Source of the DNA: Candidatus Lustribacter sp.
GTDB lineage: Bacteria; Vulcanimicrobiota; Vulcanimicrobiia; Vulcanimicrobiales; Vulcanimicrobiaceae
Length of the DNA: 64,000 nucleotides
NCBI GenBank assembly: GCA_965277805.1
Contig: OZ255842.1
Span: 1,408,001-1,472,000, forward strand
Direction of reading: 5' to 3'
The notes beneath the pieces were generated by a model, which searched no databases, had not been told where the DNA came from, and saw nothing but the letters and a program-made list of their open reading frames with translations. Both the position numbers and the translations under genes were made by a program. Positions 36,091 through 57,087 of the stretch are shown here, piece by piece. Within the stretch, counting starts at the first letter, position 1. Each line of letters begins with the position of its first letter.

Positions 36091-36598
36091 GCGCGGGCGT
36101 GCGCTTCGCAACCCAGGCGGCGAGCGTCGCTTGTGCGCGTTCGGCTGCTGCCGGCGTGCGCGCGGGTAATGGTCCGGCAATCTTCCAGCGCAGGCCTTCG
36201 GGATCGCGGAAAGCGATGACGAGGTGACCGTCGGAATCGCGTTCGTCGTCGACCGCAACGCCGGCCGCGATGAGATGCTCGCGCCAGCGCCCGACCGCAT
36301 CGTGCGAGGGCGCCTGCAGCGAGCAATAGCGGGCCGCGTTGTCGGCCCAACCGGGCCCCGGATCGAGCGTCGCGCGGTCGATCGCGAAATACGCGACGTT
36401 GCCTTGCCGGCCCAACTCGTAGAAGACGTGCATGTGCGGGCTATAGAGCCCGGTGCTGGGAACGTGCAGGTTCGTTACCGCCCACGAGAAGCGCAAGCCG
36501 ACGACGTCGGTCCAGAAGCGATGTGTGTCCTCGATCGCATCGGCGATGAAGGCGAGATGATGGGCTCCTTCGATTCGAAGCTCGTCGCTCGGTATCAT
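36083..36598 (-). CDS. VOC/glyoxalase family protein (retains N-terminal module ligands)
   Basis: GAHHLAF..ED THRFWTDVVGL ... HMHVFY ... FRDPEG. Confidence 0.78.
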   Translation of the reverse strand: MIPSDELRIEGAHHLAFIADAIEDTHRFWTDVVGLRFSWAVTNLHVPSTGLYSPHMHVFYELGRQGNVAYFAIDRATLDPGPGWADNAARYCSLQAPSHDAVGRWREHLIAAGVAVDDERDSDGHLVIAFRDPEGLRWKIAGPLPARTPAAAERAQATLAAWVAKRTPAHA

Positions 36599-36740
36599 GG
36601 ACCGGTCCTTCCGCGCTGGGGCAGTTTGCCGAAAGTGTACGCCCGCGCGGGACGCCCGTCAACTTTTCGAAGGTGCCGCGAGGCAGTCCGTTGACGATAT
36701 CATTGACGTCGTTGACCTGCCATTGCTTTTGGAGGTACTG

Positions 36741-37937
36741 ATGCTTGGTTCTTTCCGTTCCGGCGGCCGCACGCTACTCGCGGCGCTCCTACTCGCCGCC
36801 CTGGCCGGCGCCACGGCGCCGGTGCGTGCGGCCGATACCACGCCGTTCGAGATCTATTCGATCGCGTCGCTGACCGGTTTCGGTGCGTTTCTCGGGCAGG
36901 CGCAGCAAGACACGCTGCAGCGTCTGGCTGTCAGCATCAACAGGAACGGCGGCATCAAAGGGCGGCCGATTCATTTCACGATTTATGACGATCAGACGAA
37001 TCCGCAAGTCGACGTGCAACTGGTGAATCAGATTCTGGCTAAGAATGCGAGCGTGCTCGTGGGTCCCGGGCTGACCGCACCGTGCTTAGCCGTCATGCCG
37101 CTCGTTCAAGGCAAGATGGTGTCGTGGTGCGCGTCGCCGGGGATTCATCCCAACAAAGATTCGTATTCGTTTTCTTCGAGCGTCAGCACGACGGATCTGG
37201 TCAAGACATTCGTGCGGTACTTTCGCGGCCGCGGCATGACGCGGTTGGCGGCGTTGGTCCCGACCGACGCCACCGGCCAAGACGCCGACAAGAACCTGGC
37301 CGAAGTGCTCGCGCTGCCGGAAAACAAAGACATCAAGCTCGTCGCGCATGAGTATATGAACAACACGGATCTCTCGGTGTCGGCGCAGATCGCGAAAATC
37401 AAGGCGGCGAATCCGCAAGCGCTGATCGCCTGGACGATCGGAACGCCCACCGCGACCGTCCTTCACGGCGTCAGCGACGGCGGCCTCGATATTCCTGTCG
37501 CGCTTTCGAACGGCAACATGACGTTTGCCGCGATGAAACAGTGGGCGGCGTTCTTGCCGAAGGATCTCTATTTTCCCGGCGCACCGTTTCTGGCGGGCTC
37601 GATGGGCTCGGCGCAGCAGCGAGTCGCGATCCAGCAATTCTTCGACGTAACCAAAGGACAGGGCGTTCAGCCGGATTTTCAGACCGGACTGATCTGGGAT
37701 CCGGCCGTGCTCCTCATCACAGCTTTACGCTCGCTCGGCACCGATGCGACCGCAACCCAAGTGCGCGATTACATCGACAAGATTCATGACTTTGCCGGCA
37801 TTGCCGGCGTCTACGATTTTCGCGACGGCAGTCATCGCGGGCTCTCGCAGAAGGACGTGTTGATCATGCGCTGGGATGTCGCCAAAAACACATGGGTCGC
37901 CGTAAGCAAACTCGGTGGGGCACCGGAGACGCCCTAA
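36741..37937 (+). CDS. LivJ/LivK-type ABC substrate-binding protein
   Basis: GGAGG RBS, signal peptide, INRNGGIKGRPI...DDQTNP. Confidence 0.87.
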   Translation: MLGSFRSGGRTLLAALLLAALAGATAPVRAADTTPFEIYSIASLTGFGAFLGQAQQDTLQRLAVSINRNGGIKGRPIHFTIYDDQTNPQVDVQLVNQILAKNASVLVGPGLTAPCLAVMPLVQGKMVSWCASPGIHPNKDSYSFSSSVSTTDLVKTFVRYFRGRGMTRLAALVPTDATGQDADKNLAEVLALPENKDIKLVAHEYMNNTDLSVSAQIAKIKAANPQALIAWTIGTPTATVLHGVSDGGLDIPVALSNGNMTFAAMKQWAAFLPKDLYFPGAPFLAGSMGSAQQRVAIQQFFDVTKGQGVQPDFQTGLIWDPAVLLITALRSLGTDATATQVRDYIDKIHDFAGIAGVYDFRDGSHRGLSQKDVLIMRWDVAKNTWVAVSKLGGAPETP

Positions 37938-37986
37938 ACGGACGTCGAGTCGAGGCACAACGGTCGTTGTAGACGAAGGGGCCGCG

Positions 37987-38922
37987 ATGAGAGCTTCGTA
38001 CCGACTACTTGGGATTGCCTTCGCGTTTGCGCTATGCTGCAGCGCCGGCGCTACCGCGCAAACCACGCCCGTGATTCATTTAGGCTTAGCGCCGTTCGAA
38101 GGCCAGGCCGGCCCGTATTATGCGCAGGACCTCGGACTGTTCCAGGCGGCCGGCCTCAACATCGATATCCAACAGTTCAACGGCGGTGCTGCCGTCGTTT
38201 CCGCAATCGCCGGCGGCGCGCTGCAAATCGGCGGCGGGACTCCGCTTCCGCTGGCCCAAGCGCGTGCTCGCGGGATCAAAGTGGTGCTCATCGCTCCCGG
38301 CTACATCTATGACTACAAGGCGCCGACGCCGATCAACGCGCTGGTCGTCGCCGCGAATTCCCCCATCCACGATGCCAAGGACCTGGCGGGCAAGACCGTT
38401 GCGGTGACACAAGTGCGCGGGCTCGACGAGCTCGCCGTTGACGCGTGGCTCGACGGACACGGCGGGGATTCACACAACGTGAAGTACACCGAGTTCCCGC
38501 AGAACGCGATGGCCGACGCGGTCGCGGCGGGACGCGTCGATGCTGCGGAAATCGGCGACCCCGCATTGTCGGGCGCCCTCGAGGCCGGTAAAGTCCGGAT
38601 CCTCGCAAAGGCGTACGACTCGATCGCGAAGCGCCTTTTCGGGTCGGTCTGGTTTGCGAGTGAAGACTGGGCCACACAACACCCCGACGACGTGCGCAAG
38701 TTCGCCGCTGCCATCAATCAAGCCGCGGCCTGGGCGACGCGCAATCCGGTTGCGGCGGCGAAGGTGCTGCAGAAGTACATGAAAGTGACCTATTCCACCG
38801 CGCATGAATACCATGGCCGCACACTCGACCCGTCATTCATCCAGCCCGTCCTCGACGCATCATTCCGCTACAAACTTTTGACGACCCAGATGAGCGCGAA
38901 CGACCTCATCTGGAAGAATTGA
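37987..38922 (+). CDS. ABC substrate-binding protein, SsuA/NMT1 family
   Basis: Signal peptide; YAQDLGLFQAAGL, DLAGKTVAV, GRVDAA. Confidence 0.86.
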   Translation: MRASYRLLGIAFAFALCCSAGATAQTTPVIHLGLAPFEGQAGPYYAQDLGLFQAAGLNIDIQQFNGGAAVVSAIAGGALQIGGGTPLPLAQARARGIKVVLIAPGYIYDYKAPTPINALVVAANSPIHDAKDLAGKTVAVTQVRGLDELAVDAWLDGHGGDSHNVKYTEFPQNAMADAVAAGRVDAAEIGDPALSGALEAGKVRILAKAYDSIAKRLFGSVWFASEDWATQHPDDVRKFAAAINQAAAWATRNPVAAAKVLQKYMKVTYSTAHEYHGRTLDPSFIQPVLDASFRYKLLTTQMSANDLIWKN

Positions 38923-39309: not shown

Positions 39310-39408
39310 CTTAGCGGCGACCTTATGCGACGCCGCTCAAAAATCCGCGTCCCGCCGGGACCACGCCGACAGGCGAGGAGCATGCCTGCAATCGGAGAAG
39401 GGCGCGCG

Positions 39409-41559
39409 ATGACGACGACGACACTCGGAGTCCTTACCGGCAACGAGCGGCGGGTCGAAGGCCGCGAGAAGGTCAGCGGCGCGGCGCAGTATGCGGCGGA
39501 TATGCGCCGGACCGGGATGCTGTGGGCCGCGTTCGTGATCTCACCGCACCCTCACGCCCGCATCGTACGCATCGACAGCGCGGCTGCCAAAGCGCTGCCG
39601 GGCGTGCACGCGGTGCTGACCGCTGCGGACATCGGCGAAGTCCGGTTCGGATCGGTGCTTGCTGACTGGCCGGTATTGGCGTCGGAACGCGTGCGTTTGA
39701 TCGGTGACTATGTCGCCGCTGTGGCGGCGGAAACGCGCGAGCAAGCCGAGGCAGCGGCGGCGGCGGTCGACGTCGTCTATGAAGAGTTGCCGCCGATCCT
39801 CGACACCGCCGCAGCGATCCGCGACGGCGCGCCGCTGGTCCACGAGAACGACGAGCAGTATGCCTTTACCGCCGGCACGCGCGCGCCGCGGCCCTATCCG
39901 AATCTGCAAGGCCACGATCTGGTCGTGAAGGGCGACCCCGACGAAGCCTTTGCTTCCGCCGAGCACATCTTCGAGCACACGTACCGCACGCCGCGCTATC
40001 ATCCCGGTTACATCGAGCCGCGCGCGGCGATGGTGTGGATCGACGGGAGCGGCGCAGTGCACGTGGTGTGTCCGACCAAGGCGCCCTACTCGCACCGCGA
40101 CATGATCGCGCGCACGATCGGCCTGCCGAAAGACAAAGTAATCGTCGAGCCGAGCTTCATCGGGGGCGACTTTGGACCCAAAGGCACGATGGTCGACGAT
40201 CTGCCGCTCTACTATCTCGCCCGCGTCACCGGCCGCGCCGTCAAGTACGTGCGCTCGTACAATGAGGACCTGCGCTCGGGCACGGTTCGCCACGCCTCGA
40301 CCGTTCACGTGCGGCTCGGCCTCGGGGCCGGCGGAAAAATAACAGCTCTCGATCTGCGCGTGATCTACGACGGCGGCGCATACGCGGCGGTGAAGTCACT
40401 GCCGTGGCTGCTTCCCGGACGCGCACCCAAATTGCCCTACGCGATCCCCAACGCGCGCGTCGAACGCATGGCCGTCTACACGAACACGATCCCGACCGGC
40501 GCCGTGCGGGCTCCGGGCGACGTGCAGATCTTCTTTGCGCTGGAGTCGGCCATGGATGCGATCGCCGCGGAACTTCGGCTCGATCCGTTCGAGTTGCGGC
40601 TGCGCAACGCGGCGGGTCCCGGCGACACCGATCTGGAGGGCGGGCAGATCGCACGCCCGCGTCCGCGCGAAGTGCTCATGACGTTGCGCGAGGCGATCGG
40701 CTGGGACCGGCCGCCCCTTCCGGGGCGCGGCCGCGGCATCGCGCTGACCGCACGACATATCGCCGGCGGCAAATCGAGCCTGGTCGCAACCGCGCATCCC
40801 GACGGCCGCATCGAGGTCGAGACCGGCGCCGTCGAGCCGGGTACCGGCGCCTTCACCGTGATCAGCCGCATTCTCGCGAGCGAGTTGGGCATCGATCCGG
40901 CGCGCATCACCGTATCGCGCGGCGATACGAACAGCGCGCCGCACGATCCCGGCAGCGGCGGCAGCAAAGGGACCGTCATTTTGGGACATGCCGCACTCGA
41001 CGCCGCGCAGAAACTGCGCGCGGCGTTAGCGGAGCATCCCGCAGGGCCCGTGCGCGTCGCCGGGGAGACGCCGCAACTCGGCAAGCCCGGTGATCCGGCG
41101 TGGCTCAACTATTGCGGTTACGGCGTCGAGCTCTCGGTCGACGCGGAGACCGGAGCCATCCGCATCTACGATGTCGCAATGGTCGTCGACGTTGGTGCGA
41201 TCATCAACCCGATCGGGCACCGTGGACAGCTCGAAGGCGCATTCTCAATGGGGCTCGGCCACGCGCTCACGGAGGAACTCTATCTCGAGGGCGGTCGCAT
41301 CACGAACCCGACCCTCGCTGATTATAAACTACCGTGCCAGCGCGACATGCCGCCGCTGCGAATCGTGGAACTCTCGCCCGACGGCGGTCCCGGCCCCTTC
41401 GGAGCGAAGGCCGGCGGCGAATTTAACGTCGCCGGTGTCGCTCCGGCGATTGGAAACGCGATCGCCGCCGCCTGCGGCGTCCGGCTCGACGCGATGTCCT
41501 TCACGGCGGAGCGCATCTATGCGGCCTTGCACGACGGCCGCGGGGTAGCGCCTGCTTGA
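39409..41559 (+). CDS. Xanthine dehydrogenase family molybdopterin-binding (large) subunit
   Basis: RVEGREKVSGAAQYAAD, SPHPHARI, GGDFGPK, DVGAIINP...GQLEG, GPFGAKAGGE. Confidence 0.92.
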   Translation: MTTTTLGVLTGNERRVEGREKVSGAAQYAADMRRTGMLWAAFVISPHPHARIVRIDSAAAKALPGVHAVLTAADIGEVRFGSVLADWPVLASERVRLIGDYVAAVAAETREQAEAAAAAVDVVYEELPPILDTAAAIRDGAPLVHENDEQYAFTAGTRAPRPYPNLQGHDLVVKGDPDEAFASAEHIFEHTYRTPRYHPGYIEPRAAMVWIDGSGAVHVVCPTKAPYSHRDMIARTIGLPKDKVIVEPSFIGGDFGPKGTMVDDLPLYYLARVTGRAVKYVRSYNEDLRSGTVRHASTVHVRLGLGAGGKITALDLRVIYDGGAYAAVKSLPWLLPGRAPKLPYAIPNARVERMAVYTNTIPTGAVRAPGDVQIFFALESAMDAIAAELRLDPFELRLRNAAGPGDTDLEGGQIARPRPREVLMTLREAIGWDRPPLPGRGRGIALTARHIAGGKSSLVATAHPDGRIEVETGAVEPGTGAFTVISRILASELGIDPARITVSRGDTNSAPHDPGSGGSKGTVILGHAALDAAQKLRAALAEHPAGPVRVAGETPQLGKPGDPAWLNYCGYGVELSVDAETGAIRIYDVAMVVDVGAIINPIGHRGQLEGAFSMGLGHALTEELYLEGGRITNPTLADYKLPCQRDMPPLRIVELSPDGGPGPFGAKAGGEFNVAGVAPAIGNAIAAACGVRLDAMSFTAERIYAALHDGRGVAPA

Positions 41560-42715: not shown

Positions 42716-43219
42716 TTATTGCGCGGGGATGGTAAAGCGAATCGCGCGGAACGCGGAGTGGGCCCCACACGTCGCACATTGCACGATCAGTTTCGTCGGA
42801 ACGAAATCCTTATCGACCGCGAACGCCTCTGACTGTCGCTCCGATGCGCCTTGTAAGATGTGAAGGTTCGCGTGTTTGAGGGCGTTCGTTGGAATTTCGA
42901 CGGAGATGCCGTCTTTGTCGGCGAGCGTGTACGTCACGAGACTGATGAAGTCGTCGTGCGTGCCGTTGCTGAGTAGCGATTCAAAAAACATCACTTTTTG
43001 ATTTGCCGTCGGACTCGTGTCGGGAATCTCGTCTGCGTTTGCGGAGCGAAATGACGTGATCTTCACGCGCAGCATGCCGTTGAAGACCGTCGTCCCGAGG
43101 TTGGCCGTGACGGCGGAGACGCCGTTTGCGCCTCCCGGAATAGGCGTCGGTGCGGCGCTCGCTTGTGAGAACATGCTGATGAGTAGACCGAGCGCGAGCA
43201 GGTGCGTTTGGGCGTACAT
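42716..43219 (-). CDS. Hypothetical secreted protein (Ig-like/DUF4352-like), C-terminal CxxC
   Basis: GGAG RBS, signal peptide ending ASA-A, beta-rich sequence. Confidence 0.65.
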   Translation of the reverse strand: MYAQTHLLALGLLISMFSQASAAPTPIPGGANGVSAVTANLGTTVFNGMLRVKITSFRSANADEIPDTSPTANQKVMFFESLLSNGTHDDFISLVTYTLADKDGISVEIPTNALKHANLHILQGASERQSEAFAVDKDFVPTKLIVQCATCGAHSAFRAIRFTIPAQ

Positions 43220-43278
43220 GGTGCTTCTCCCAGGCGCAGATTTGTGCGCCGCGGCGATTGTAGGTAAGCGATGGGACG

Positions 43279-43310
43279 ATTTTAATATCGCGACGTGCCG
43301 CGGGCGTGCC
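43279..43310 (-). promoter_or_regulatory. Putative SARP-activated promoter A: GGCACG-N5-GGCACG-N9-TAAAAT
   Basis: Repeats at 43310-43305 and 43299-43294, -10 at 43284-43279 on the minus strand; upstream of 42716-43219. Confidence 0.75.
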
Positions 43311-43340
43311 GAACTTACGTGTCGCGAATACAAGTGATGG

Positions 43341-43553
43341 CTAGTCCGACGTATCGGCCGGCGAATCGGAGGCGCTTGCTTCTGACGAACGTAGCGCGCT
43401 GGCGATGAAATCAACGACCTCCGCCGGCGCGCTCAGGTAGCAACGGCGGCCGGTCTTGACCTCGTAAACGGAGCCGCGCCAGGAGCCTTGGCCGGCAGGG
43501 CCCGCTTCGTGCCACATCCGTACGAGAAAGACACATTCGCGACGACTCGACAT
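43341..43553 (-). CDS. Small hypothetical protein (70 aa; VFLVRMW...WRGSV...GRRCY...VVDFI)
   Basis: Compact beta-beta-beta-alpha-like pattern; divergent from the regulator; preceded by promoter B. Confidence 0.65.
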   Translation of the reverse strand: MSSRRECVFLVRMWHEAGPAGQGSWRGSVYEVKTGRRCYLSAPAEVVDFIASALRSSEASASDSPADTSD

Positions 43554-43579
43554 CACTGCACGCCGGTACTCATGACGGG

Positions 43580-43611
43580 AGCGTAACGCCGCGGCGTGCC
43601 GCACGCGTGCA
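43580..43611 (-). promoter_or_regulatory. Putative SARP-activated promoter B: TGCACG-N5-GGCACG-N9-TACGCT
   Basis: Repeats at 43611-43606 and 43600-43595, -10 at 43585-43580 on the minus strand. Confidence 0.72.
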
Positions 43612-43686
43612 CTCTTCGCGGTGAAGAGGCTCGCCGGGAGCTTGCTCGCCCGGATAGTCGTGCAGCCGAAATGAACGTTTATCGAA

Positions 43687-46600
43687 GTGAACAACGGGCG
43701 GACAGCGATCGCCACCGCGGACGGGCAACTCGATATCCGCTTATTCGGCCAAGCGAGCGTGCGCTTTAACGGTGCCCCGATCAAGTTCGCAAAGCGCGAC
43801 CGCACGATGGCGATGTTGGCTCGGATCATTTTGCAGCGCGGGTCTCCACTTTCGCGCGATGCTCTCGCCTACTCGGTCTTTCCCGACGACGAGGAAGCGA
43901 CGGCCGTAGCCGAGTTGCGGCGCTATTTATACCTCGCCGGCAAGGCGCTGCCCGAACCTTCCGGGGAACCGTGGCTCATCACCGACTCCGAGACGGTGCG
44001 ATGGAATATCGAAGCCGCCGCGACGATAGACGTGATCGCTTTCGAGGAGCTTGCACGCGATCCGAACTCCTACGAGCGCGCGTTCGACCTCTATACGGGT
44101 GACTTGCTCGAAGAGATTTATGATGACTGGATCGTTGCCGAACGCGAGCGGCTGAGAGCGCGGTATCTCACGATTCTCGACGATGCGCTCGCGCGCCATC
44201 GTTCGTCGCGTCGTTATCCAATGGCGATCGAATGCGCCAAGCGTATTCTCGCGATCGACCCGTTGCGCGAGGACACCCTGCGAGCGCTCATGAGTACACG
44301 CTATGCCGCCGGCGACACGGCCGGCGCACTCGCGGAATACGAGCGATTCGCGCGGCAGCTTCGCGACGAACTTTCGATAGGGCCGATGCCGGAAACCGTA
44401 GCGGTGCGACAAACGATCTTGCGAAACGAAGCTCTTCCGGGCGCGATCGCGGACGCTTCCGGCCGCCCCGGCGAGCGAATTCCAGCCACGCTACTGCCCT
44501 TCGCGGGCCGAACGCGCGAGATGGCTTCGCTCCATACGGCCTGGACGAGAGCTGCGCGCGGTACCGGAACATTCGTCCTGATCGAAGGCGAGGCCGGCAT
44601 CGGCAAAACACGTCTAGCCGACGAATTATCTCGCATCGTGCAGTCGGAAGGCGGCCGCGCCTTCGTCGGGACCACGGCAGCGCCGGAATCGAGCTCGTAT
44701 CAAGCGATCGTCGAGGCGCTGCGCTCGGCCATGCCGTTGCTGCTGGCGCGGCCTCCCCTTTCGGCGCGGCGCGCGACGCTCGGGCCACTGTTACCGGAAT
44801 TGCACGATTCCGCAACCCCGAACACCGTGCCGCCTGCGCAATCGGCCGAGCGCGAACTCGCGAGGTTATACGACGCGCTTGCAGATGCTCTTCGGATACT
44901 GGCCTCGCCTCGCCCGGCGCTGGTCGTCCTCGAAGACCTTCATTGGGCGGGGTCGGCGACGATCGAGGCGCTGGGCGCAATCGCAAAAGAATTGATTCGC
45001 GTTCCGATCATGATCGTCGCGACGTGCCGCGAAGAAGAAACGCCGCCGCACCACCCGCTGCGCGCGCTCGTGCGTTCTCTCGGAACGCTCGCAAACGCCA
45101 GTGAACTGCAAGTTTCGCGCTTCAGTGTTGACGAGGTCAGCGATCTCGTGGGGCGAGTCGACGGGCTTCGCGGCCTTCCGCCTGCCTTCGCCCGCGACTT
45201 GCACGCGCAGAGCGAAGGCAATGCGTTGTTTGTGAGCGAGTTCATCAGCGCTGCGCTCGAAGAGAATCACGGAACGCGCACCGACGCCTCGTCGATCGCG
45301 GGCGTCATCACCTCCCGCATCGCGCAGCTCGGCGAAGTTGCGATGACCGTAGCCGAAATTGCGTCGGTGGCGGGGGCGGGCTGCAGCATCGGTCTCGTGC
45401 GCGACGTCGCGAACCTGCCGGCGGCGGAGCTTGCGCGCGGCTTCGACGAGTTGCTCGACCGGCGCATATTGCGCGAGGCCGGCGCGCGCGCCCACTACGA
45501 CTATGTGTTCACCCATCATCTCATCGCCGAAGCGATATACGCGGGAATCGATCCGAATATGCGTGCGCGCCGACATTCGCGGATCGCCCGCAGGCTCGAA
45601 GCCGAGCAGCAGTTGAACGTTTCAACCCAGGAACGTGAGATCGCGCGGCATCACGAGCGCGCCGGCGAATCTGACGCAGCCGCTCACTGGTACGTCAAGG
45701 CGGCTGCTGCGGCGGCGCAAATGCACGCCTACGGTGATGCCGCCGATTTAGCGACCCTGGCGCTGCGTTTGTCGCCAAGGCCGGATGTCGAACGCTCGGC
45801 TCTTGATATTCGGGAACGGGCTTTCGGCCAACGGGGGGAACGCACGCTACAACGCGCGGATATCGATGCTTTAGAGCGGCTCGCCGGGACCGGCGCGCGC
45901 GAGCGGTTTGACGTGCTGATGCGCCGCGTGCTGCTAGCACGAACGCTCGGAGAATCGGACGAGGAAGGCCGCTTAATCGCCGAAATGCGTTCCGAGACAG
46001 GCATGGATGATGGAGCCCAAGCGCTGGCTCTGATCCAAGCCGCCACGCATTTGGGCTTGCGAAGCCGCCCGGCTGATGCTCTGGGTCCCGCTCGCGAAGC
46101 TCTCGCCATTTACGAGCGCATCGGGGACGTGCGCGGACAGCTCGAGTGTCTCTATGTGCTCGTCGACCAAACGGCCAATTTCGGCGATCTTTCCGGCTCG
46201 CGCGCATACTTGATGCAGATGCACAATCGAGCCGGGAACGTAGCAGATAAACTCGTGGAGGCGCGCGCGACGGCAGTGGCTGCACAAGCCGCCCTCTTGA
46301 GCGCCGACTATCGGGCGAGTTACGACCTATCCGTGCAAGCGCTGGCGCTTCAAATCGAGACGAACGATCGCGACGGTGAAGCCCAGTCGCGCGGACGCTG
46401 CGCCGTCTCCGCGGCGTGGCTGGGCGATTTTGCAATCGCGCTTCGCGAATTCGAACGAGCAATAGAAACCTACGCGTCGATCGGCAACAAGCGTGGCCTG
46501 GCGTTGACGTACACCAACCGAACGCTTTTGCTTATGCGGCTCGGCCTCTTCGAGGAGGCGATGCTCTCGATCCAGCAATCGAATGAACTTTTTATTGTCG

Positions 46601-47172
46601 CGCACGAGGAGCGCACCGTCGTCGCCAACCATGTCAACGCGAGCTTCGTCAAACTGCAGCTGGGTGATCCCGTAGCTGCTAAGACGCTAGCCAACGCCGC
46701 TCTCGACAGCGCGCGGGCCATCGCTTTTCCCATCTTCGAGGCGGCCGCGCTCGCAAATCTTGGCAACGCCGAGCGCGCCCTGGGGCAGTTCGATACGGCG
46801 ATCGCGCACATGGAAGCCGGCATTGCGCTGCGCCGTCCCTTACAAGAAGCCCGCGATTTTGTCGACGATCTCGCGGATCTGGCACTGGCCTACGCCGGTG
46901 CCGGGCGCAGCGCGGATGCGCTCGCAATCGCAGATGAACTGTGCGCAATCGACGGCGGCTCGTTTCAGAGTGCTCTCTGGCCTCACTATCCGCGTTGGGC
47001 CGTGGCTCAAAGCTACGCCGCCGCCGGCGAGTTAGATCGGGCCCGGGAGTCCGCGGCCCGCGCGCACGCGGACTTGTATCGATTTGCCGACCGCATCGAC
47101 GACGAGCGCGCACGCGCCGCGTTCTTGGCAGTTCCGATCAACGTTACGATTGCAACCGCAACGTTATTGTAA
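43687..47172 (+). CDS. SARP-family regulator: winged HTH + BTAD + P-loop ATPase + TPR repeats (AfsR-like architecture)
   Basis: IRLFG...LSRDALA...IDVIAFE...LYTGDLLE...DPLRE (wHTH/BTAD); Walker A GEAGIGKT; Walker B VVLEDLHWA; FTHHLI; helical repeats (ALANLGNAERALGQFDTAIAHMEAGIAL). Confidence 0.9.
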   Translation: MNNGRTAIATADGQLDIRLFGQASVRFNGAPIKFAKRDRTMAMLARIILQRGSPLSRDALAYSVFPDDEEATAVAELRRYLYLAGKALPEPSGEPWLITDSETVRWNIEAAATIDVIAFEELARDPNSYERAFDLYTGDLLEEIYDDWIVAERERLRARYLTILDDALARHRSSRRYPMAIECAKRILAIDPLREDTLRALMSTRYAAGDTAGALAEYERFARQLRDELSIGPMPETVAVRQTILRNEALPGAIADASGRPGERIPATLLPFAGRTREMASLHTAWTRAARGTGTFVLIEGEAGIGKTRLADELSRIVQSEGGRAFVGTTAAPESSSYQAIVEALRSAMPLLLARPPLSARRATLGPLLPELHDSATPNTVPPAQSAERELARLYDALADALRILASPRPALVVLEDLHWAGSATIEALGAIAKELIRVPIMIVATCREEETPPHHPLRALVRSLGTLANASELQVSRFSVDEVSDLVGRVDGLRGLPPAFARDLHAQSEGNALFVSEFISAALEENHGTRTDASSIAGVITSRIAQLGEVAMTVAEIASVAGAGCSIGLVRDVANLPAAELARGFDELLDRRILREAGARAHYDYVFTHHLIAEAIYAGIDPNMRARRHSRIARRLEAEQQLNVSTQEREIARHHERAGESDAAAHWYVKAAAAAAQMHAYGDAADLATLALRLSPRPDVERSALDIRERAFGQRGERTLQRADIDALERLAGTGARERFDVLMRRVLLARTLGESDEEGRLIAEMRSETGMDDGAQALALIQAATHLGLRSRPADALGPAREALAIYERIGDVRGQLECLYVLVDQTANFGDLSGSRAYLMQMHNRAGNVADKLVEARATAVAAQAALLSADYRASYDLSVQALALQIETNDRDGEAQSRGRCAVSAAWLGDFAIALREFERAIETYASIGNKRGLALTYTNRTLLLMRLGLFEEAMLSIQQSNELFIVAHEERTVVANHVNASFVKLQLGDPVAAKTLANAALDSARAIAFPIFEAAALANLGNAERALGQFDTAIAHMEAGIALRRPLQEARDFVDDLADLALAYAGAGRSADALAIADELCAIDGGSFQSALWPHYPRWAVAQSYAAAGELDRARESAARAHADLYRFADRIDDERARAAFLAVPINVTIATATLL

Positions 47173-47212
47173 AACAGCCGAACCTACGCTTGCTTGGCAA
47201 CCACCCTCCGTC

Positions 47213-47244
47213 GGCACGCCTGCGGCACGCGCGACGAGTACGCT
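47213..47244 (+). promoter_or_regulatory. Putative SARP-activated promoter C: GGCACG-N5-GGCACG-N9-TACGCT
   Basis: Repeats at 47213-47218 and 47224-47229, -10 at 47239-47244, ATG at 47252. Confidence 0.75.
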
Positions 47245-47251
47245 CAGATCC

Positions 47252-49838
47252 ATGAACGGACTCGGATCGCTGCAGAAAGCTGGGTTGCCAATGATCGTGG
47301 GCAGAAATTGGAGGGCCATCGCGAGCATGATCGCTGTGCTCATCATGGTACCGGCTGCGGCGTCGGCCGACCCCACGCTGACCAAGCCGATATACAAGAA
47401 AATCGTCGTCACGCCGCCGGCGAAAAACGTCATTTGCCTTGACTTCAAGGTTGCGCCGAACGAGGGACTTCCCCCCGACGCTCAAGGGAGGCTGCTCCCT
47501 TGCGGGCGCGACGGCGGTGCACTTCGGCACCGCGGCGGCAGCGTTCAGGGTGCAGTCAGACGGCTCGATCGCAGCGACGCCTCCGGCACTTCCCGCCGGC
47601 AGCAGCGTCCCCGTCACCGTGACGCTACCGGGTGGGCAAATCATCGGCGGGGCAAGCACGCTCTATTCTTATCCGATCGCGGAGATGGATATGGAAGGCC
47701 CGTATTCGTTTCCGCTTGGGGAAGATACCAACTCGTATAACTGGTGGCTCGGTACCGACAGTCACTTTCTGCGCGAGAGCCAACCCGCAACGCTATCGTA
47801 TATAACACTCGGACCGACGCTATATGTCGGCGCGTATTTTAGCAATACGATCTACACCGAGTCGACTCAAGCCCCTTACGTTCTTGGAAATACCGGACTG
47901 TTTACTGCGAAGCTCCAGGTATGCACGGCTTCGAGCCCGTCCGGGGTTCCCGGCCTACCCGGGTTTCTGCCGACACCTGCGCCCGGCGACCCATGCACCA
48001 ATTGGGACAAGACGCCGGGTTATTGGAAAGACGTCACCAGTGCATCGGCATCGGTTCATGCGCCGAACGGAACCCAAACCGCTTCCCAATCGACGATCCC
48101 GCTTTCGACGTCGGGTCTCTTTGTCTCCGGAGACCCGTCGACGATGCAACTGGCGCGGACGTTGCGCATCATCTACGATTATCGTGAAAGCGATGACGAT
48201 CAGCAATTTGCCACGCGGGTCGGACTTGCACGTTTCGATGAGAAAAAGGGCCGACCGTTCAACGCCGTCATCGCGCCGACGGCGTTGTATCAGATGAAGG
48301 CAATCCCGTACACCATTGTCTACCAGCCGCCGGGCGATCAAAGCACGGTATCGTTTGCCGCTGCGACCACCTACGGAACGACGTATACGCTCGGAGCGAG
48401 TACCGAGAACGATACCTCCTCCACCGCCGAGCAGAATGAGACGACGAAGTTCAGCGAATCGTATGCCTTTGGATTGACGGCGGGATTCGGCGATACGAGC
48501 GTCTGGGATCAGACGGTAAAGCAAGGCTTCGGTGCAACGAACGGTACGACCGGCGTGGGCACGGGGTCAACGGCGTTCAGCTTTACTTGGCAGATCCCGG
48601 CGGCGCCCAGCCTTACGCCGGGCACCGGCGCCGTATGTGCGACGCTGACGAGCTGCGGTTCGCAAATCAGCCCGCCCAATGCCTACGCCGCCGAGCCGTT
48701 TTGGCTTGATACGTTCGTCTTGCTCATCCATCCGCAATATGCGTACTGGCAGCTTGCGGCCGGGAATCAGAACTATGTTCTCTACGGTGCCGTCCCCGTG
48801 ACCGCGGACGTCACGGTTGCGGAACTCGACGCATGCGCGCGCGGACAAATGTGGTTTCAACTGAATCCCTGCCAGGTCGAGTATTCCGACAGCGACATAA
48901 CGGCGGCTAACGGTCAGCCGATTTCGTACGCCGGCGTGACGCGGACGTTGACGCTGACGGCCTCGGAAGCCGCTCATCTCTTAGCCCTCGATCCCTTTTA
49001 CGCTCAGGGCCAAAATGCAAACATCCTCACGAGTCGAGCGACGCCGATTGCAAGCGCCAGTTACGGTGCAAGTATCGGCGCGCCCGCCCGTCCCTATGTG
49101 ACCAACCTTACAAATTCCGCTTCGAACCAGCAGACGGGCTCGACTAATTTGCAATACTCGTCGAGCGTGACGACCGTCGTCAGCGACGATCCGAACATGA
49201 CGGGTGGGGCGACGAGCAGCGGTTCGGGCGGGCCGGTGACTTACACCACCACCCTCGCTTACGACGACCTCACCAAGAACACGAATGAGACGGATCTAAA
49301 AACGACATTCAGCAACTCGACCGCCGTTTCAAATCAGCGTGTAACCACGGCAAACGTCGTTCTCAACGACATCGACGACACGAGCACGACGTGCAAAACG
49401 TGTCACAACCCGTTAGCGCACCAGCCGTCGGTGAACATCTATTTCGATCGGGTCTTTGGGACGTTCATGTTTCAAGATCCGGGCGCCGTTCGGTCGACGG
49501 TGTTCACGAAGCCGCTATGCTGTGATGTTCTGCTGCGGGGTCTTCTCGCTCACGAAGCACATCTGCGGCGGTTCAGCGACGTCCCGGCGGGCGACCCCAA
49601 TGCCGCTGTCCTGGGCTTGATGGCCCGAGCCGGACTCATACCGGCCGTGTCGGCGGGCAAGTTTGCGCCCCAAAGCGCCGTGAGCGCGACCCAAGTGTCG
49701 CAAGCGGTTGCCCGGGCGCGGTCGCATGCCGGCCGCCTTGCGGTGCAGCCCTCGGTCACGCTCAAACCCGGTACAACCGAGACGCGAGAACAAGCCGCGG
49801 TGGCGCTCTTCAAATCACTGACGACGCCGCCGCGCTAA
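47252..49838 (+). pseudogene. Large secreted surface protein (signal peptide, IPT/TIG domain, Ser/Thr-rich beta region, C-terminal SLH) split by a frameshift near 47471-47476
   Basis: Signal peptide in frame 47084-47740 (...VPAAASA-DP). IPT-like GATAVHFGTAAAAFRVQSDGSIAATPP and SLH-like FSDVP...AGLI...GKFAPQSAVS lie in frame 47439-49838. Confidence 0.65.
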
Positions 49839-49865: not shown

Positions 49866-52800
49866 TCAACTGCACCCCGATGTGGACCCACACGAGTCGC
49901 ACTTGAGGCACGTGCCGTTGCGGACGAGTGCGAACTGGCCGCACGTTCCGCAGGCGTCGCCGCTGTAACCCTTCGCTAGCGCTTCGCGCACGCGTTCGGC
50001 GATCGGTTGGGCCGTGCCGCGTTGCACCGGAGCGGGAGAAGAAGCCGCAGCGACGCCGGCCATGACCGGAGCGGGAACGGGTGCTTGCACGGGCGCCGGT
50101 TTGGGCAGCGCGGCAGCTGTGGACGGACGCGTCGGTTCGACCGTGCGGTAGGTGGTGCCGCCGTCTTCTTCTCCGGTGTATTCCGGGTCGGGGCCCATCG
50201 CGTCGATCTGTTGCGACGGCTGCACTTGCGCGAGATCGTAGCGGCCGAGATAGCTCACGGCGAGTTCGCGGAAGATGTAGTCGAGGATCGACGTCGCCAT
50301 CTTGATGTTCTCGTGACCTTGCACGGGACCGTTCGGCTCGAAGCGCGTGAACGTGAACGCGTCCACGTATTCTTCGAGCGGAACGCCGTGTTGTAGTCCG
50401 AGCGAGACCGCGATGGCGAAGTTGTTCATCAAGGAGCGGAACGCCGCGCCTTCTTTGTGCATGTCGACGAAGATCTCGCCGATCGTGCCGTCATCGTATT
50501 CACCGGTGCGCACGTAGACTTTGTGCCCGCCGACGACCGCTTTCTGCGTGTAGCCGCCGCGGCGATCCGGCATGCGCCGGCGCTTGGCGATGTAGCGGTA
50601 GACGATCTTCTCGGCGATCTGCACGGGGGTCGTGTAGGCCGCCGTCGGCATGTCGGCTTCCTCGTCGGGCGAGCCGATGTCGTACGATGCAGCCAACGGC
50701 TGCGAGAGCTTCGAACCGTCGCGATAGAGGGCGACGGCTTTGGTCATGCGCTCCCACGAGTAGCGGTAAGCTTCCTTGACGTCGCTGATCGTGGCATCTT
50801 GCGGCAGGTTGATCGTCTTGGAGATCGCGCCGCTGATGAACGGCTGGGCCGCTGCCAGCATGTCGATGTGCGCAAGCGGGCGGATGTAACGCGAACCGTG
50901 CTTGCCGCAGGGCGTCGCGCAATCGAAGATCGCGAGGTGCTCGTCCTTGAGGAATGGCGCGCCTTCGAGCGTCATCCGGCCGCAGATCACATCCGAGGCT
51001 TCGTCGATCTGCTGGCCCGTAAATCCGAGCACGTCGCGCAGGATCGAGATGTTCCAGTCGGCGAGCTGCTCCGGGGTCATGCCGAGTTTGGTCGTGCAGA
51101 ACTCATCGCCCAGCACGAAGTGGTTGAAGACGAAACCGATCTCGAAGGCGCCGAGCAGCTGCGTTTCGATCTTCGCGAGCGTCTCGTCGTCGAAGCCCTT
51201 TGCTTTGAGCGTCGCACGGTTGATGTGCGGCGCGCCCTCGAGTGTGTTGGTGCCCTTGGCGAACGTCTCGATCGCGGCGATTTGCTCGTTGCTGTAGCCG
51301 AGACGGCGGAGTGCCGGCTCAACCGATTGATTGACGATCTTGAAGTAGCCGCCGCCGGCGAGCTTCTTGAACTTCACAAGCGCGAAGTCGGGCTCGATGC
51401 CGGTGGTGTCGCAGTCCATCACGAGACCGATCGTGCCGGTCGGCGCGATGACGGTAACTTGTGCATTGCGGTAGCCCGCGACCTCGCCGATGGCGAGCGC
51501 GTTGTCCCACATGACACGTGCCAGGGCCCACGTCTCCTGCGTGAAGAGCGAGGGTGCATGCGTTACCGGAGTGATCGTAAGGCCTTCGTATTCGTTCTTC
51601 GGTACCGCGTAGGCGGCGCGACGATGATTGCGCAGCACGCGCTCCATTGCTTCACCGTTATGCGAGTACCGCGGGAACGAGCCAAGTTCGCGCGCCATTT
51701 CCGCCGACGTCTTGTACGCCGTAGCGGTCATGAGCGACGTGATGGCCGCGCACCAGCCGAAGCCTTCTTCGGAATCGTACGGCAAACCAATGCGCATCAG
51801 CATCGTGCCGAGGTTCGCATACCCGAGTCCGAGCGTGCGGTAGTCGTACGACCGCTGCGCGATTTCTTTCGACGGGAACTGTGCCATCGTGACGCTGATC
51901 TCGAGCGTCGTCGTCCACACGCGGCAAGCATCCGCGAAGCGTTTGGCTTCAAAATGTCCCGACGCATCGAGGAAATTTACCAGGTTGAGAGACGCCAAGT
52001 TGCAGGCAGTGTCATCGAGGAAGAGATACTCCGAACAATTGTGTACCACTACACCATTTGCGACAAAGTGCGCGGTGTCAGGTTCGGTAAGATCAAAGAC
52101 GTTCTCAATGCCGCGATATTGCAGAGCTGCGAAGCGATCGGTCATCTTGTCGGCATAGACTCCGACGCTTGCGTTTAGTGCAGCGAGCTTCTGAGCTTTC
52201 GCCGAGGCCGGATGGAAGCCGATCTCCTGTTCAAAACGAACGCGCGACGAGCGCGAGATTCGCAGTGAATGCATTTCCTGGACCGGATAAAGTTTTAACC
52301 CACCTTTTCCGTCAGGGCATATCGAGGCGGAGATCCCGCCACGACGATTCTCGTACAGTTTCGCTTTGATACCGAATCCAAGCAGCAATGTCTGTACTTG
52401 GAGCAGCAATTCAAGAGAAGACGAATCCAGCGCCACGTATTGCGTCTTGTCGCCGTAGTGCCCGACGCAGCCGTCGGCGGTGAAGAGGCCGCTTAGCATA
52501 GACGCAATCGCAGCCTTGTCTAGCGAAAATGCTTCTTGGCGAAGTGCCTTCTTGGAGCTGCCTTCGTTGAGAACTGCGAGACGATCGAACGTCTCAATGA
52601 TCGAGCGATTCGATAGCGCAATGCGTGAACCGCCTTTGCTGGGCGCAGTAACGGTCGTGGTGCGGGCACCGCGACCATCGATGGCCGTCCGTGACTTTTC
52701 TGCGTTAAGCGAATTCGCGACATCGTCGAGTATCGCAGACTCATCTGCGCTCATTGTTAGGATGAGGCCACGCTCTGGGCCGAATCCGGATGCATTATTT

Positions 52801-54545
52801 GTGATGCACCCGTCGCCAATGGCAACACCGACCGCGAAAGCGATGCCCTTTTCGAGGTGCTTTGACCCGAAGCCCGAGCCTTGCAGAACTATTTCGTCGT
52901 CCGCAGTAAGGTCGCGCGCTGCAACGTCGCCGCGGTTTGACGTGAAGACCTTATGGTCAGCCGTCACGTTCAGGCGATAGCCCGAGCGGGTGCGAAGCTC
53001 GTACGTTTCTTTTTTGCCAGTCGGAAAGATACGTGAGACGAAATGCGGCTTGCCATCGCCTCCGATAACAAAGGCCGACTTGCCGACGAGATCTTCTATG
53101 CGCTGCATGCCGTCGGCAGTGGCCACCAGCGTATCGCCCGTGACGCACGGGTTACTTGCGTTAATGCGACCATCGCTCGGGCATGTATGCCATTCGTTGA
53201 TCGTCGTATCGAATTGCAGGCCCGGATCGGCGACTTGCCATGCGGCGAGTGCGATTTGTTCCCAGAGATCTGCAGTCGGGATGGATTTCGCAACGCGTCC
53301 GTCGGTACGGCGCGTCGTATCCCAATTCTGACCCGCGTCAAGACGTGCGAAAAATTCGTTCGGGATGCGCACGGAGTTGTTCGAATTCTGACCCGACACC
53401 GTGCCGTACGCCTTGGAGTCCCAATTCGTATCGTAGGTCTCGATCATCAGCTCTTTGTAGCCCTGACGCGCAAAATCGAGCGCGTACTGAATGCTGCCCG
53501 GAGGCACACCCATGTTCATCGCCTGACGCATCGCGGTCTTCAGCGCTGGGTTGAGAGCGGGATCGAGGCGAGCGGCTTCTGGCACGGCTTCGTTGTGCGC
53601 CGCCTTCATGATCAGGTTGAGATACTTTTCGCTAACGATCGAACCGGTAACGAGGTCGGCGACTTTCTGCTCTTCCTTAACTTTCCAGCCAACGAATTCT
53701 TCGATGTCGGGATGATCGAGATCGAGCACGACCATCTTGGCTGCACGTCGCGTCGTTCCACCGGACTTGATCGCTCCGGCAGCACGATCGCCCACGCGCA
53801 AGAACGACATCAATCCGGAGCTCGTGCCGCCACCGGAGAGCTTCTCGCCCTCGCCGCGCAGCATCGAGAAATTGGAACCCGTGCCGCTGCCGTACTTGAA
53901 GATGCGCGCTTCACGAACCCACAGGTCCATAATGCCGCCTTCATTCACCAAATCATCGCTTACTGACTGGATAAAGCAAGCATGGGGAGCCGGGTGCTCG
54001 TATGCGCTCGTTGCGACGGTGAGTTCGCCGGTTTTGGGGTCGACAAAATGGTGGCCTTGCGCCGGGCCCGCAATCCCGTACGCCCAGTGCAGCCCCGTGT
54101 TGAACCACTGCGGTGAGTTGGGCGCGCCGATCTGGCGGGCCAGCATCGCGCACATCTCGTCGTAATACGCCCGCGCGTCGCCCTCGGTATCGAAGTAGCC
54201 GTACTTGTAGCCCCAATAGGTCCACGTGCCGGCGAGCCGGTGGAAGACCTGACGGGCATCCGTTTCGGGCCCGAAGGTCGCATCGTCGGCCGGCTCGGAG
54301 CGCCAGAGCCACTGCGGAATATCCGGTTCCTCGACGCCCTTGAGGGCGCTGGGCACGCCGGCTTTCCGGAAATACTTCTGAGCGATGATATCGGTCGCGA
54401 CCTGACTCCAGCCGGCCGGGATCTGGATATCCTTGGCTTCGAATATCATCGACCCGTTGGGGTTGACGATTCGCGAGGTACGCGGCTCAAACGTTACGCC
54501 GGCGTAGGGTTCACCGGGAGCCGAATAGGTACGGGAGAATTTCAT
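49866..54545 (-). CDS. nrdJ: Class II (adenosylcobalamin-dependent) ribonucleotide reductase, intein-containing
   Basis: [58 protein letters not shown]-terminal CGTC..CDSCG. Confidence 0.96.
52038..53147 (-). mobile_element. Intein (370 aa) with LAGLIDADG homing endonuclease, inserted immediately before the catalytic Cys of NPCSE
   Basis: Begins CVTGDTLV; block B VTADHKV; LAGLIDADG-like GVAIGDGC and [10 protein letters not shown]; ends [18 protein letters not shown] followed by Cys. Confidence 0.95.
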
Positions 54546-55636: not shown

Positions 55637-57087
55637 AGACGTACGAGCCGCCGCAACCGGCGGCGCACGACAGCGGCACGCCGGCCGAATTGCTGACGTT
55701 CATGACCCAGTTGTGGGAAGTGCCCAGCGGGCCGATTCCCACGCTGGCCGGCCGCGAACGTTTCGCCGCTCGCCGCCGCGCGATCGCGCAGCAGTTTCCG
55801 AACGATGTGCTGGTCATACCGACGGGCCACGAAAAAGTCCGCGCCAACGACACGAACTACCGCTTCCGGCCGGGCACCGACTTCTATTATCTGACCGGCA
55901 TTCACGAACCGGACGCCGTGCTCGTGCTCCTGACCGACGGCGATGAAGCGCGCGCGGTCGTCTTCACCGAACCGAATCCCGGCAAGACGAACGCGACGTT
56001 TTTCACCGATCGCGTCAAGGGTGAGCTGTGGGTCGGACCGCGGCTCGGCGTCGCGGCGACGGCCGCGCGCTTCGGCGTGGAAGCGCAGCCGATCGACGAC
56101 CTCGCGACGTTCGTCAACGTCTCGTTCGGCGCGCGGCCGACGCGGCTCGTGCGCGGGCTCGACGACGACATCGCGCGCTCGATCTACTCCAATCTCGACG
56201 ACGACAACGCATTCTCCGCAGCGCTCTCGGAAATGCGGCTGATCAAGGACGATCTCGAAGTCGCCGAATTGCGCGCCGCGATCGCCGCGACCAAACGCGG
56301 CTTCGATGACGTGGTGCGCGCCTTGCCCAACGCGCTCACCGAACGGGTCGTGGAAGGCGTGTTCAACCTGCGCGCGCGCGTCGAAGGCAACGACGTCGGT
56401 TACTCCACGATCGCGGCCTCCGGTCCGGACGCCTGCATCCTGCACTGGGTGCGCAACGACCGCCGCATCGGCGCGGGCGATCTGCTGCTGCTCGATGCGG
56501 GCGTCGAGGCGGTCTCGCTCTACACGGCGGACGTCACCCGCACGCTGCCGGTCAGCGGATCCTTCAGCACCGAGCAGCGCGAGATCTACACGCTAGTCTG
56601 GGAAGCCCAGCGCGCCGCGTTCGAGGCGTGCAAGCCGGGCAATGATTTCCTCGAGCCCAACGCCGCGGCGATGCGCGTGCTGGCACAGGGGCTCGAGCGG
56701 CTCGGCATCCTGCCCTCAGCAGAAGAAGCGCTGCGCGACGACAAGCTCTTCTATAAACGTTACTCGCTGCACAACGTGAGCCACATGCTCGGGCTCGACG
56801 TCCACGATTGCGCGAAGGCGCGCGCCGAGACATACAAGTTCGGCCGGCTCGAGCCGGGGATGGTGCTCACGGTTGAACCCGGGCTCTACTTCCAGCTCGA
56901 CGACCTGACCGTGCCCGAGCGCTACCGCGGGATCGGCGTGCGGATCGAGGACGACGTCGTGATCACCGCCGACGGCTACGAGAACCTCTCGGCCGCCGTG
57001 CCGAGCGAGCCCGACGCCGTCGAGGCCTGGGTCCGGTCGCTGGCCGGGACCACACCCGAGCCCTGGGTCATCCCGGAGCCCGCATGA
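55633..57087 (+). CDS. pepP: Xaa-Pro aminopeptidase (aminopeptidase P)
   Basis: RANDTNYRFRP.TDFYYLTG; full M24 ligand set LDAG..YTADVTRT, HMLGLDVHD, TVEPG, RIEDD. Confidence 0.92.
   Translation: MKTYEPPQPAAHDSGTPAELLTFMTQLWEVPSGPIPTLAGRERFAARRRAIAQQFPNDVLVIPTGHEKVRANDTNYRFRPGTDFYYLTGIHEPDAVLVLLTDGDEARAVVFTEPNPGKTNATFFTDRVKGELWVGPRLGVAATAARFGVEAQPIDDLATFVNVSFGARPTRLVRGLDDDIARSIYSNLDDDNAFSAALSEMRLIKDDLEVAELRAAIAATKRGFDDVVRALPNALTERVVEGVFNLRARVEGNDVGYSTIAASGPDACILHWVRNDRRIGAGDLLLLDAGVEAVSLYTADVTRTLPVSGSFSTEQREIYTLVWEAQRAAFEACKPGNDFLEPNAAAMRVLAQGLERLGILPSAEEALRDDKLFYKRYSLHNVSHMLGLDVHDCAKARAETYKFGRLEPGMVLTVEPGLYFQLDDLTVPERYRGIGVRIEDDVVITADGYENLSAAVPSEPDAVEAWVRSLAGTTPEPWVIPEPA

Follow-up and report, generated by a model that had tools for sequence, protein, structure and literature searches.

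A SARP regulator of Candidatus Lustribacter lies among 11-bp repeat promoters and beside a small protein that may act on it

Results

The regulator, its boxes and their start sites

We analysed a stretch of 64,000 nucleotides (nt) from Candidatus Lustribacter sp. (contig OZ255842.1 of assembly GCA_965277805.1, positions 1,408,001 to 1,472,000), hereafter the window, in which a regulator of 1161 amino acids (43687..47172, plus strand) is flanked by three promoters that share two direct repeats, 11 bp apart, at a fixed distance from a -10 hexamer. The regulator joins a winged helix-turn-helix (wHTH) and a BTAD domain, together the SARP unit (SARP, Streptomyces antibiotic regulatory protein), to an AAA_16-type STAND ATPase and TPR repeats, and judging from its sequence it is very probably an AfsR-like SARP activator that would bind and switch on these boxes. 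One of the three promoters precedes gene B, which encodes a 70-residue protein of an unnamed family whose members stand beside SARPs in several phyla. As a whole, we consider it moderately probable that the locus consists of an AfsR-like activator and a small feedback partner, the latter being an anti-activator rather than a co-activator as the likelier sign.

The three elements had been placed by an earlier note on this DNA, and all of them lie where it put them, each on the coding strand of its own downstream gene. Box A (43279..43310, minus strand) reads GGCACG-N5-GGCACG-N9-TAAAAT, with the ATG of gene A 59 nt downstream; box B (43580..43611, minus strand) reads TGCACG-N5-GGCACG-N9-TACGCT; and box C (47213..47244, plus strand) reads GGCACG-N5-GGCACG-N9-TACGCT, with the ATG of gene C 7 nt downstream. 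No sigma-70 -35 match was found at any of the three. In the window the repeat GCACG-N5-GGCACG is matched 4 times, where shuffles lead one to expect 0.32; the fourth match (at 55665) stands without a -10. When the -10 is included, GCACG-N6-GCACG-N9-TAnnnT occurs 3 times in the 5,533,281-base genome, each time inside the 4.2 kb around the regulator, and 164 other spacer combinations of the same motif averaged 0.26 copies per genome and never exceeded 2, so that the motif rises above its genome-wide background as the note had supposed. The repeat pair without the -10 showed no genome-wide enrichment (38 copies at this spacing, 8-59 at other spacings), and the signal therefore lies in the joint geometry and the clustering. 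Boxes B and C are kept in the relative G003, where the repeats and -10 of box B are identical.

Conservation was followed in a class set of 40 loci around the best regulator homologs, with the window and its paralog included and G036 left out. A wider form of the box, G.ACG-N6-G.ACG-N9-TAnnnT with no more than one mismatch allowed, was present in the 260 nt upstream of the small gene (the homolog of gene B) in 22 of 30 class cases, and the motif is thus found beside homologous regulators, as had been anticipated; other spacings gave at most 3 cases, the reverse strand gave 3, as divergent boxes exist, and 3000 random genome windows contained 2. The GGCACG repeat first described is present at the locus, but GCACG turns out to be one clade's form of this wider box. 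Since the G.ACG pattern had been broadened post hoc, a second test without a fixed motif was run, which asked only that an exact 5-mer, whatever its letters, be repeated and that a -10 come 9-10 nt later (with a CAnnnT rule for GTGA repeats, itself added post hoc). Period 11 was recovered upstream in 10 of 31 class regions, 43 of 82 GTDB regions and 15 of 41 Chloroflexota regions, and periods 8-10 and 12-15 in none.

These sites also carry information on where transcripts would begin. An ATG stands 6-7 nt past the -10 at 18 of 52 sites, where 3,362 control hexamers would lead one to expect about 1.4; this is the pattern predicted by leaderless starts and backs the prediction that transcription would start some 6-7 nt after each -10. 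By arithmetic, such a start puts the ends of the repeats at -33 and -22. For AfsR, PMC10936776 places the box from -40 to -19, with contacts to the first 8 bp in each of the 11-bp repeats, and the repeat ends that follow equal those computed here.

Domain make-up of the regulator

Pfam matches in the regulator are clear for BTAD (E 2.6e-20) and AAA_16 (E 1.2e-23), with Walker A and Walker B intact; TPR_12 (E 3.3e-6, residues 983-1050, behind the ATPase) falls slightly below its curated cut-off. The wHTH model PF00486 gave no match in the window regulator and matched in loci L103 and L092. A profile of the N-terminal 250 residues and their relatives aligns to AfsR 25-265 (E 3.6e-23), recognition helix included, and matches the EmbR structure as well (E 1.4e-15). 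The remainder of the protein departs from AfsR: NB-ARC (PF00931) gave no match at E values up to 0.05, the NCBIfam AfsR model reaches 60.9 bits against a cut-off of 1430, the best match of the ATPase is a TOMM kinase/cyclase model, and the latch motif F/Y-HD is absent, FTHHL standing in its place with the His kept. Among the 37 class proteins in which the latch pattern could be located, 3 have the Asp. Without an NB-ARC match and with this latch, the regulator would be AfsR-like in its working and lie outside the AfsR-like definition as worded in the available part of bioRxiv 10.64898/2026.09.02.748808. A TPR-sensing role had been proposed for it; many relatives are short SARPs that do without ATPase and TPR.

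The recognition helix covaries with the repeat letters

The recognition helix contains residue 76, which precedes by three positions the residue aligned with the base-contacting T88 of AfsR and corresponds to PhoB T194. At repeat position 2, 45 of the 50 half-sites that go with Glu76 have a pyrimidine, and 42 of the 48 that go with Asn, Lys, Ala or His at residue 76 have a purine; 6 half-sites were excluded because the helix was not read at their loci. Short SARPs have a different helix and four GTGA repeats.

The same genome holds a second cassette (G000 C1 4841929-4846136) with a regulator, a small gene, a gene A homolog and back-to-back GGACG boxes. The two cassettes of this genome thus use GCACG and GGACG, and the latter appears to be insulated from the former. 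A genome-wide regulon was considered and rejected, as, beyond the two cassettes, exact G.ACG sites occur only at 1702500 and 5485349, both within open reading frames (ORFs). More distant small-protein subfamilies (L156, L162-L169, L198-L201) have 11-bp boxes with TAGCC/TAGGC, TTAAC, GTAAC and CTAAT, which indicates a code richer than the one tested.

The small gene accompanies SARPs

Small genes were matched 34 times in 41 genomes (one match coming from G036), and 32 of them lie within 6 kb of a SARP domain; of the other two, one is beside a TPR fragment and one stands alone with its own box. Seen from the regulator, a small gene is nearby for 23 of 25 SARP matches of at least 300 bits, 6 of 15 at 250-300, 1 of 8 at 180-250 and 0 of 50 lower, a count that covers the 98 matches of at least 60 bits among the 150 listed, second pieces of split genes excluded, and in which the top bins are biased because the profile was built from linked SARPs. 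In GTDB, where loci were picked by one peptide motif, 70 of 79 small-gene loci have a flanking SARP; the other 9 comprise 3 with a SARP at 5-11 kb, 5 that end at a contig border and 1 with the SARP on another contig. These neighbours may be a SARP only, SARP-AAA-TPR or SARP-NB-ARC-TPR, and with three different architectures accompanying the small gene the common unit is the SARP itself. Long and short SARPs adjoin the small gene in Eremiobacterota, Chloroflexota and Lysobacterales, usually with an 11-bp box ahead of it, and six class loci have an operon of small gene and regulator in which the small gene comes first.

Distances of the small protein and of the SARP correlate within the class (rho 0.58 against a permutation maximum of 0.39), a value that kinship inflates. 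A complex predicted between the small protein and SARP residues 11-258 scored 0.39, the best control reaching 0.01, which is weak support and gives no interface; the runs share at least 94% of contacts and the partner has a predicted local distance difference test (pLDDT) value of at least 77. Of 157 solved complexes 116 reach the mark for a complex, as do 2 of 215 mismatches; at scores up to 0.60 it is reached by 18 of the solved complexes together with both mismatches. On balance, we hold it slightly more probable than not that the small protein acts on the SARP. The cassette had been described as driving two secreted proteins and a 70-residue protein; these genes are present, but it is the small gene that recurs as the conserved partner, the secreted genes being interchangeable cargo.

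Gene B and its family

Gene B (43341..43553, minus strand), the proposed SARP partner, is predicted to fold into three strands and one helix (pLDDT 88.6). A six-codon mini-ORF (43553..43573, minus strand) starts 6 nt after the -10 of box B, and its stop codon shares one base with the ATG of gene B, possibly a leaderless start with translational coupling; in G003 this layout is kept and the codons differ. The family profile finds 4,703 clusters at 50% identity, its top match, P0007, being an unrelated repeat protein that we ignored. Residues are strongly conserved across phyla, with Trp and Arg positions that do not vary.

Searches for a known relative returned nothing significant: 0 of 29 family members fell below E 0.1 in Pfam, the best NCBIfam match had E 0.024, PHROGs gave 0 of 83, and the PDB sequence search yielded at best a phage integrase domain at E 2.1. 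Fold searches with the gene B model likewise gave no significant match (Foldseek: MBD6, a methyl-CpG-binding domain, at E 0.8; VIA: best Z 5.3), and the nearest ESM Atlas clusters (0.88-0.89) are unnamed. No comparable complex emerged from the PDB sequence search. With the queries used, the family was not found in plasmids or viral contigs, and no AfsS-like internal repeats were visible by eye in gene B, no repeat finder having been run.

Five longer proteins (P0204-P0208) fuse the small domain to a globin, possibly a gas-sensing version; the 61 and 151 Chloroflexota genomes searched for globin-fusion loci held only stand-alone globins. Other fusions join the domain to a sulfurtransferase, to secreted proteins or, at the N-terminus, to unrelated cargo.

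Cargo genes and genomic neighbourhood

Gene A (42716..43219, minus strand) encodes a 167-residue protein with a signal-like N-terminus that, by sequence, would be secreted cargo. It has no Pfam match and probably contains a DUF4352-like domain, DUF4352 clusters being its nearest in the ESM Atlas (0.90-0.91), which we treat as a lead only. A homolog adjoins the paralogous regulator of this genome.

Gene C (47252..49838, plus strand) is likewise placed as cargo, with a signal-like start, an IPT/TIG domain, a beta-rich core and an SLH-like end. The box and the secreted-type start ascribed to it are present, but the gene is split here into two ORFs (47252-47740 and 47439-49838) by a frame change near 47470-47480. 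In G003 it is one unbroken ORF of 875 residues, and it is also unbroken in an about 95%-alike contig of another study. An assembly error was considered for the split and set aside, as contigs of the probable source sample, though not an independent sample, match the window across it. The family comprises 48 homologs, many with SLH, and has conserved cysteines. The model of 47676-49538 shows an Ig-like domain, the beta-rich core and two long Ser/Thr-rich inserts of low confidence. Those inserts had suggested a pore-former, a candidate that we rejected, as no fold match was obtained and the alternation of hydrophobicity is patchy; the fold search used the whole 621-residue model, so the core was hardly probed.

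Box-driven genes of the class mostly have signal-like starts and encode multicopper oxidases, NHL propellers, DUF3558-like and uncharacterised proteins, plus a subtilase and AIM24. Elsewhere the neighbours include SLH, DUF4352 and FG-GAP proteins, and DUF2589 with a metalloprotease. In L102 (5842-14149) a short SARP and a small gene directly precede a glycosyltransferase and the sheath, tube and baseplate genes of a contractile injection system. From these annotations, a cargo role in surface remodelling or conflict is plausible.

Lysobacterales loci (L103 7322-14133, L141, L105, L113 and others) have a conserved operon behind the small gene. At its head is a protein of 1,100-1,900 residues in which amidase, trypsin, C70 and C92 peptidase domains are shuffled, and uncharacterised genes follow; the operon looks like an undescribed polymorphic system.

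The window locus lies outside any antibiotic cluster, as had been claimed, none of the 12 proteins scanned between 36.6 and 55.3 kb being a biosynthetic cluster enzyme. Its neighbours are an EAL gene, a class II ribonucleotide reductase, a molybdopterin oxidase subunit and binding proteins (Peripla_BP_6, NMT1). No box was found at the binding-protein and molybdopterin-oxidase genes (36597-38922 and 39325-41559, plus strand), which we place outside the cassette. The ribonucleotide reductase gene beside gene C (49866-54545, minus strand) carries an intein with a LAGLIDADG domain.

Discussion

A working model and the sign of the feedback

In the model that we propose, two neighbouring SARP domains would occupy the pair of repeats, in the place of a -35 element, and the bound SARP would recruit RNA polymerase to genes A, B and C, whose promoters would be weak on their own. 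By analogy with AfsR, the ATPase and TPR would hold the regulator off until a signal comes. The small protein, itself made from a SARP-box promoter, would probably bind the SARP domain and most likely damp it, and the other box-driven targets would be swappable, mostly secreted or surface proteins.

Several lines bear on the sign of this feedback. The relatives G011 (97% complete, 1 contig) and G023 (96% complete) have boxes beside regulators and no detectable small gene, and a broad small-protein profile run on 11 loci without a small gene gave nothing better than E 0.11; the small gene would thus not be needed for activation. In AfsR, the isolated SARP domain activates alone, and the protein is restrained by its ATPase and TPR (PMC10936776). 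Short SARPs do not have the ATPase and TPR that inhibit AfsR and would therefore need another brake. Inhibitors that belong to their own activator's regulon are familiar from TraR-TraM, ExsA-ExsD, PspF-PspA and MalT-MalK, and these precedents favour inhibition; they share the proposed logic, with no sequence or fold link to gene B found. Overall we hold an inhibitory small protein to be a tentative reading that falls well short of even, and roughly twice as probable as co-activation.

Alternative explanations

The same boxes and the same SARP admit a small protein that works the other way, as a co-activator binding the SARP in a positive loop that turns costly cargo on in a subpopulation. The SARP linkage and the weak predicted complex would serve this explanation too, as would the operon of small gene and regulator in 6 class loci and the recurrence of the small gene ahead of separate cargo genes in L074 and L095. 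It has to face the boxes of G011 and G023, which stand without a detectable small gene, and the isolated SARP domain of AfsR, which activates without a partner (PMC10936776), and we consider it unlikely. A shade less unlikely is an AfsS-like second tier, in which the boxes still answer to the SARP but the small protein acts further downstream by binding DNA or RNA polymerase and not the SARP. Its three-strand-plus-helix fold with the invariant Trp and Arg, the weak matches to methyl-CpG-binding domains (E 0.8) and to a phage integrase domain (E 2.1) and the position of some small genes beside XRE-type regulators all point this way, but the fold matches are not significant (best Z 5.3), the upstream regions show, by eye, no common DNA motif besides the clade-specific box and -10, and the predicted complex with the SARP exceeds its controls.

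It seems improbable to us that the small ORF works chiefly in cis, as a leader accompanying the promoter and coupling the translation of cargo, while its protein has a slight role. Truncated copies of the small gene ahead of cargo in G041 and the N-terminal fusions to unrelated cargo would be accounted for, but residues conserved across phyla, a confident fold and many copies that have no cargo behind them, the cargo having separate boxes, are hard to reconcile with a mere leader. Still further down we rank a chance origin of the three elements, or their reading by another factor. The repeat pair alone is unenriched genome-wide and two more G.ACG sites of the genome fall inside ORFs, as this explanation would have it; against it stand the clustering, the conservation across phyla, the strict period of 11, the ATG excess and the covariation with the neighbouring helix, which leave it with very little probability.

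Returning to the activator with a small, probably inhibitory partner, a number of observations weigh against this explanation. The G.ACG pattern was broadened after the relatives had been seen. Site A (about 61 bp) is missing in G003, and one sigma-70 promoter match overlaps box A, at chance level (2 found, 1.8 expected). Regulators with Glu76 form a single clade of 12 rows (SH-aLRT 94 in a quick tree used for topology only), so that the covariation amounts to a handful of events and not to dozens. In a wider Chloroflexota sample of 40 loci (all 36 non-centre matches and 6 of the 12 in G041) a SARP was present at 22 and a SARP or an ATPase/TPR gene at 30, many of the contigs being short, and the near-identical L211 and L213 adjoin XRE-HTH-NB-ARC regulators with no 11-bp box found. 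The complex score of 0.39 falls where the tool is more often wrong than right unless the pairing is likely beforehand. Lastly, the operon of small gene and regulator fits either sign, positive feedback included.

Relation to known systems and meaning

SARP activation through 11-bp repeats is already established, and the closest described system is AfsR with the afs box at afsS in Streptomyces coelicolor (PDB 8k60, 8jke, 8hvr). Both arrange SARP, ATPase and TPR in this order, have 11-bp direct repeats that cover the -35 region and lie equally far from the -10, and have an adjoining small target gene. They differ in the ATPase, which in the window is AAA_16-type with no NB-ARC match and has F-T-H-H-L for F/Y-HD, and in the repeat letters, the phyla and the secreted-protein cargo. 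AfsS resembles gene B in its position beside the regulator, but AfsS bears repeats and gene B encodes a folded three-strand-plus-helix domain. The accessible text of bioRxiv 10.64898/2026.09.02.748808, which treats AfsR-like regulators in Actinomycetota, places 58% of AfsR-like genes as 'ectopic', outside biosynthetic clusters, and names no partner protein. The small SARPs (ActII-ORF4, DnrI, RedD) and EmbR share the wHTH and BTAD unit, and the short Lysobacterales members are of the same size class, with four phased repeats; the literature searched records no dedicated small partner for them, and the targets here are not antibiotic genes. In PMC8213781, BTAD is a 'shell' domain of extracellular contractile injection system loci, and L102 holds genes of such a system beside its short SARP and small gene; its accessible text names neither boxes nor small protein, and its supplements may hold the family unnamed. 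No description of the cassette or of the small family was met in the literature searched, which largely lacks subscription journals, nor did an Anabaena BTAD regulator named 'CisR' come up there.

In its widest form our reading would make this 50-residue domain the first dedicated feedback partner of SARPs. It would bind the SARP unit and set the threshold of a portable switch of SARP, box and partner that soil bacteria of several phyla have plugged onto surface proteins, hydrolases and injection systems, with paralogs kept apart by a one-residue/one-base code and with occasional fusion to a sensor such as a globin. We place this picture a little short of even.

What is understood of SARP activation comes nearly all from antibiotic clusters of Streptomyces. 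Here that promoter geometry picks out self-contained cassettes in Eremiobacterota, Chloroflexota and Lysobacterales, which makes targets readable from sequence together with a simple helix-to-motif code, and a very large unnamed family of small proteins gains its first testable role. The cassette is carried by cultured Lysobacter, Pseudoxanthomonas and Marilutibacter strains. If the small protein is indeed a SARP inhibitor or co-activator, it would explain how sensor-less short SARPs are controlled and would provide a handle for turning on silent secreted systems.

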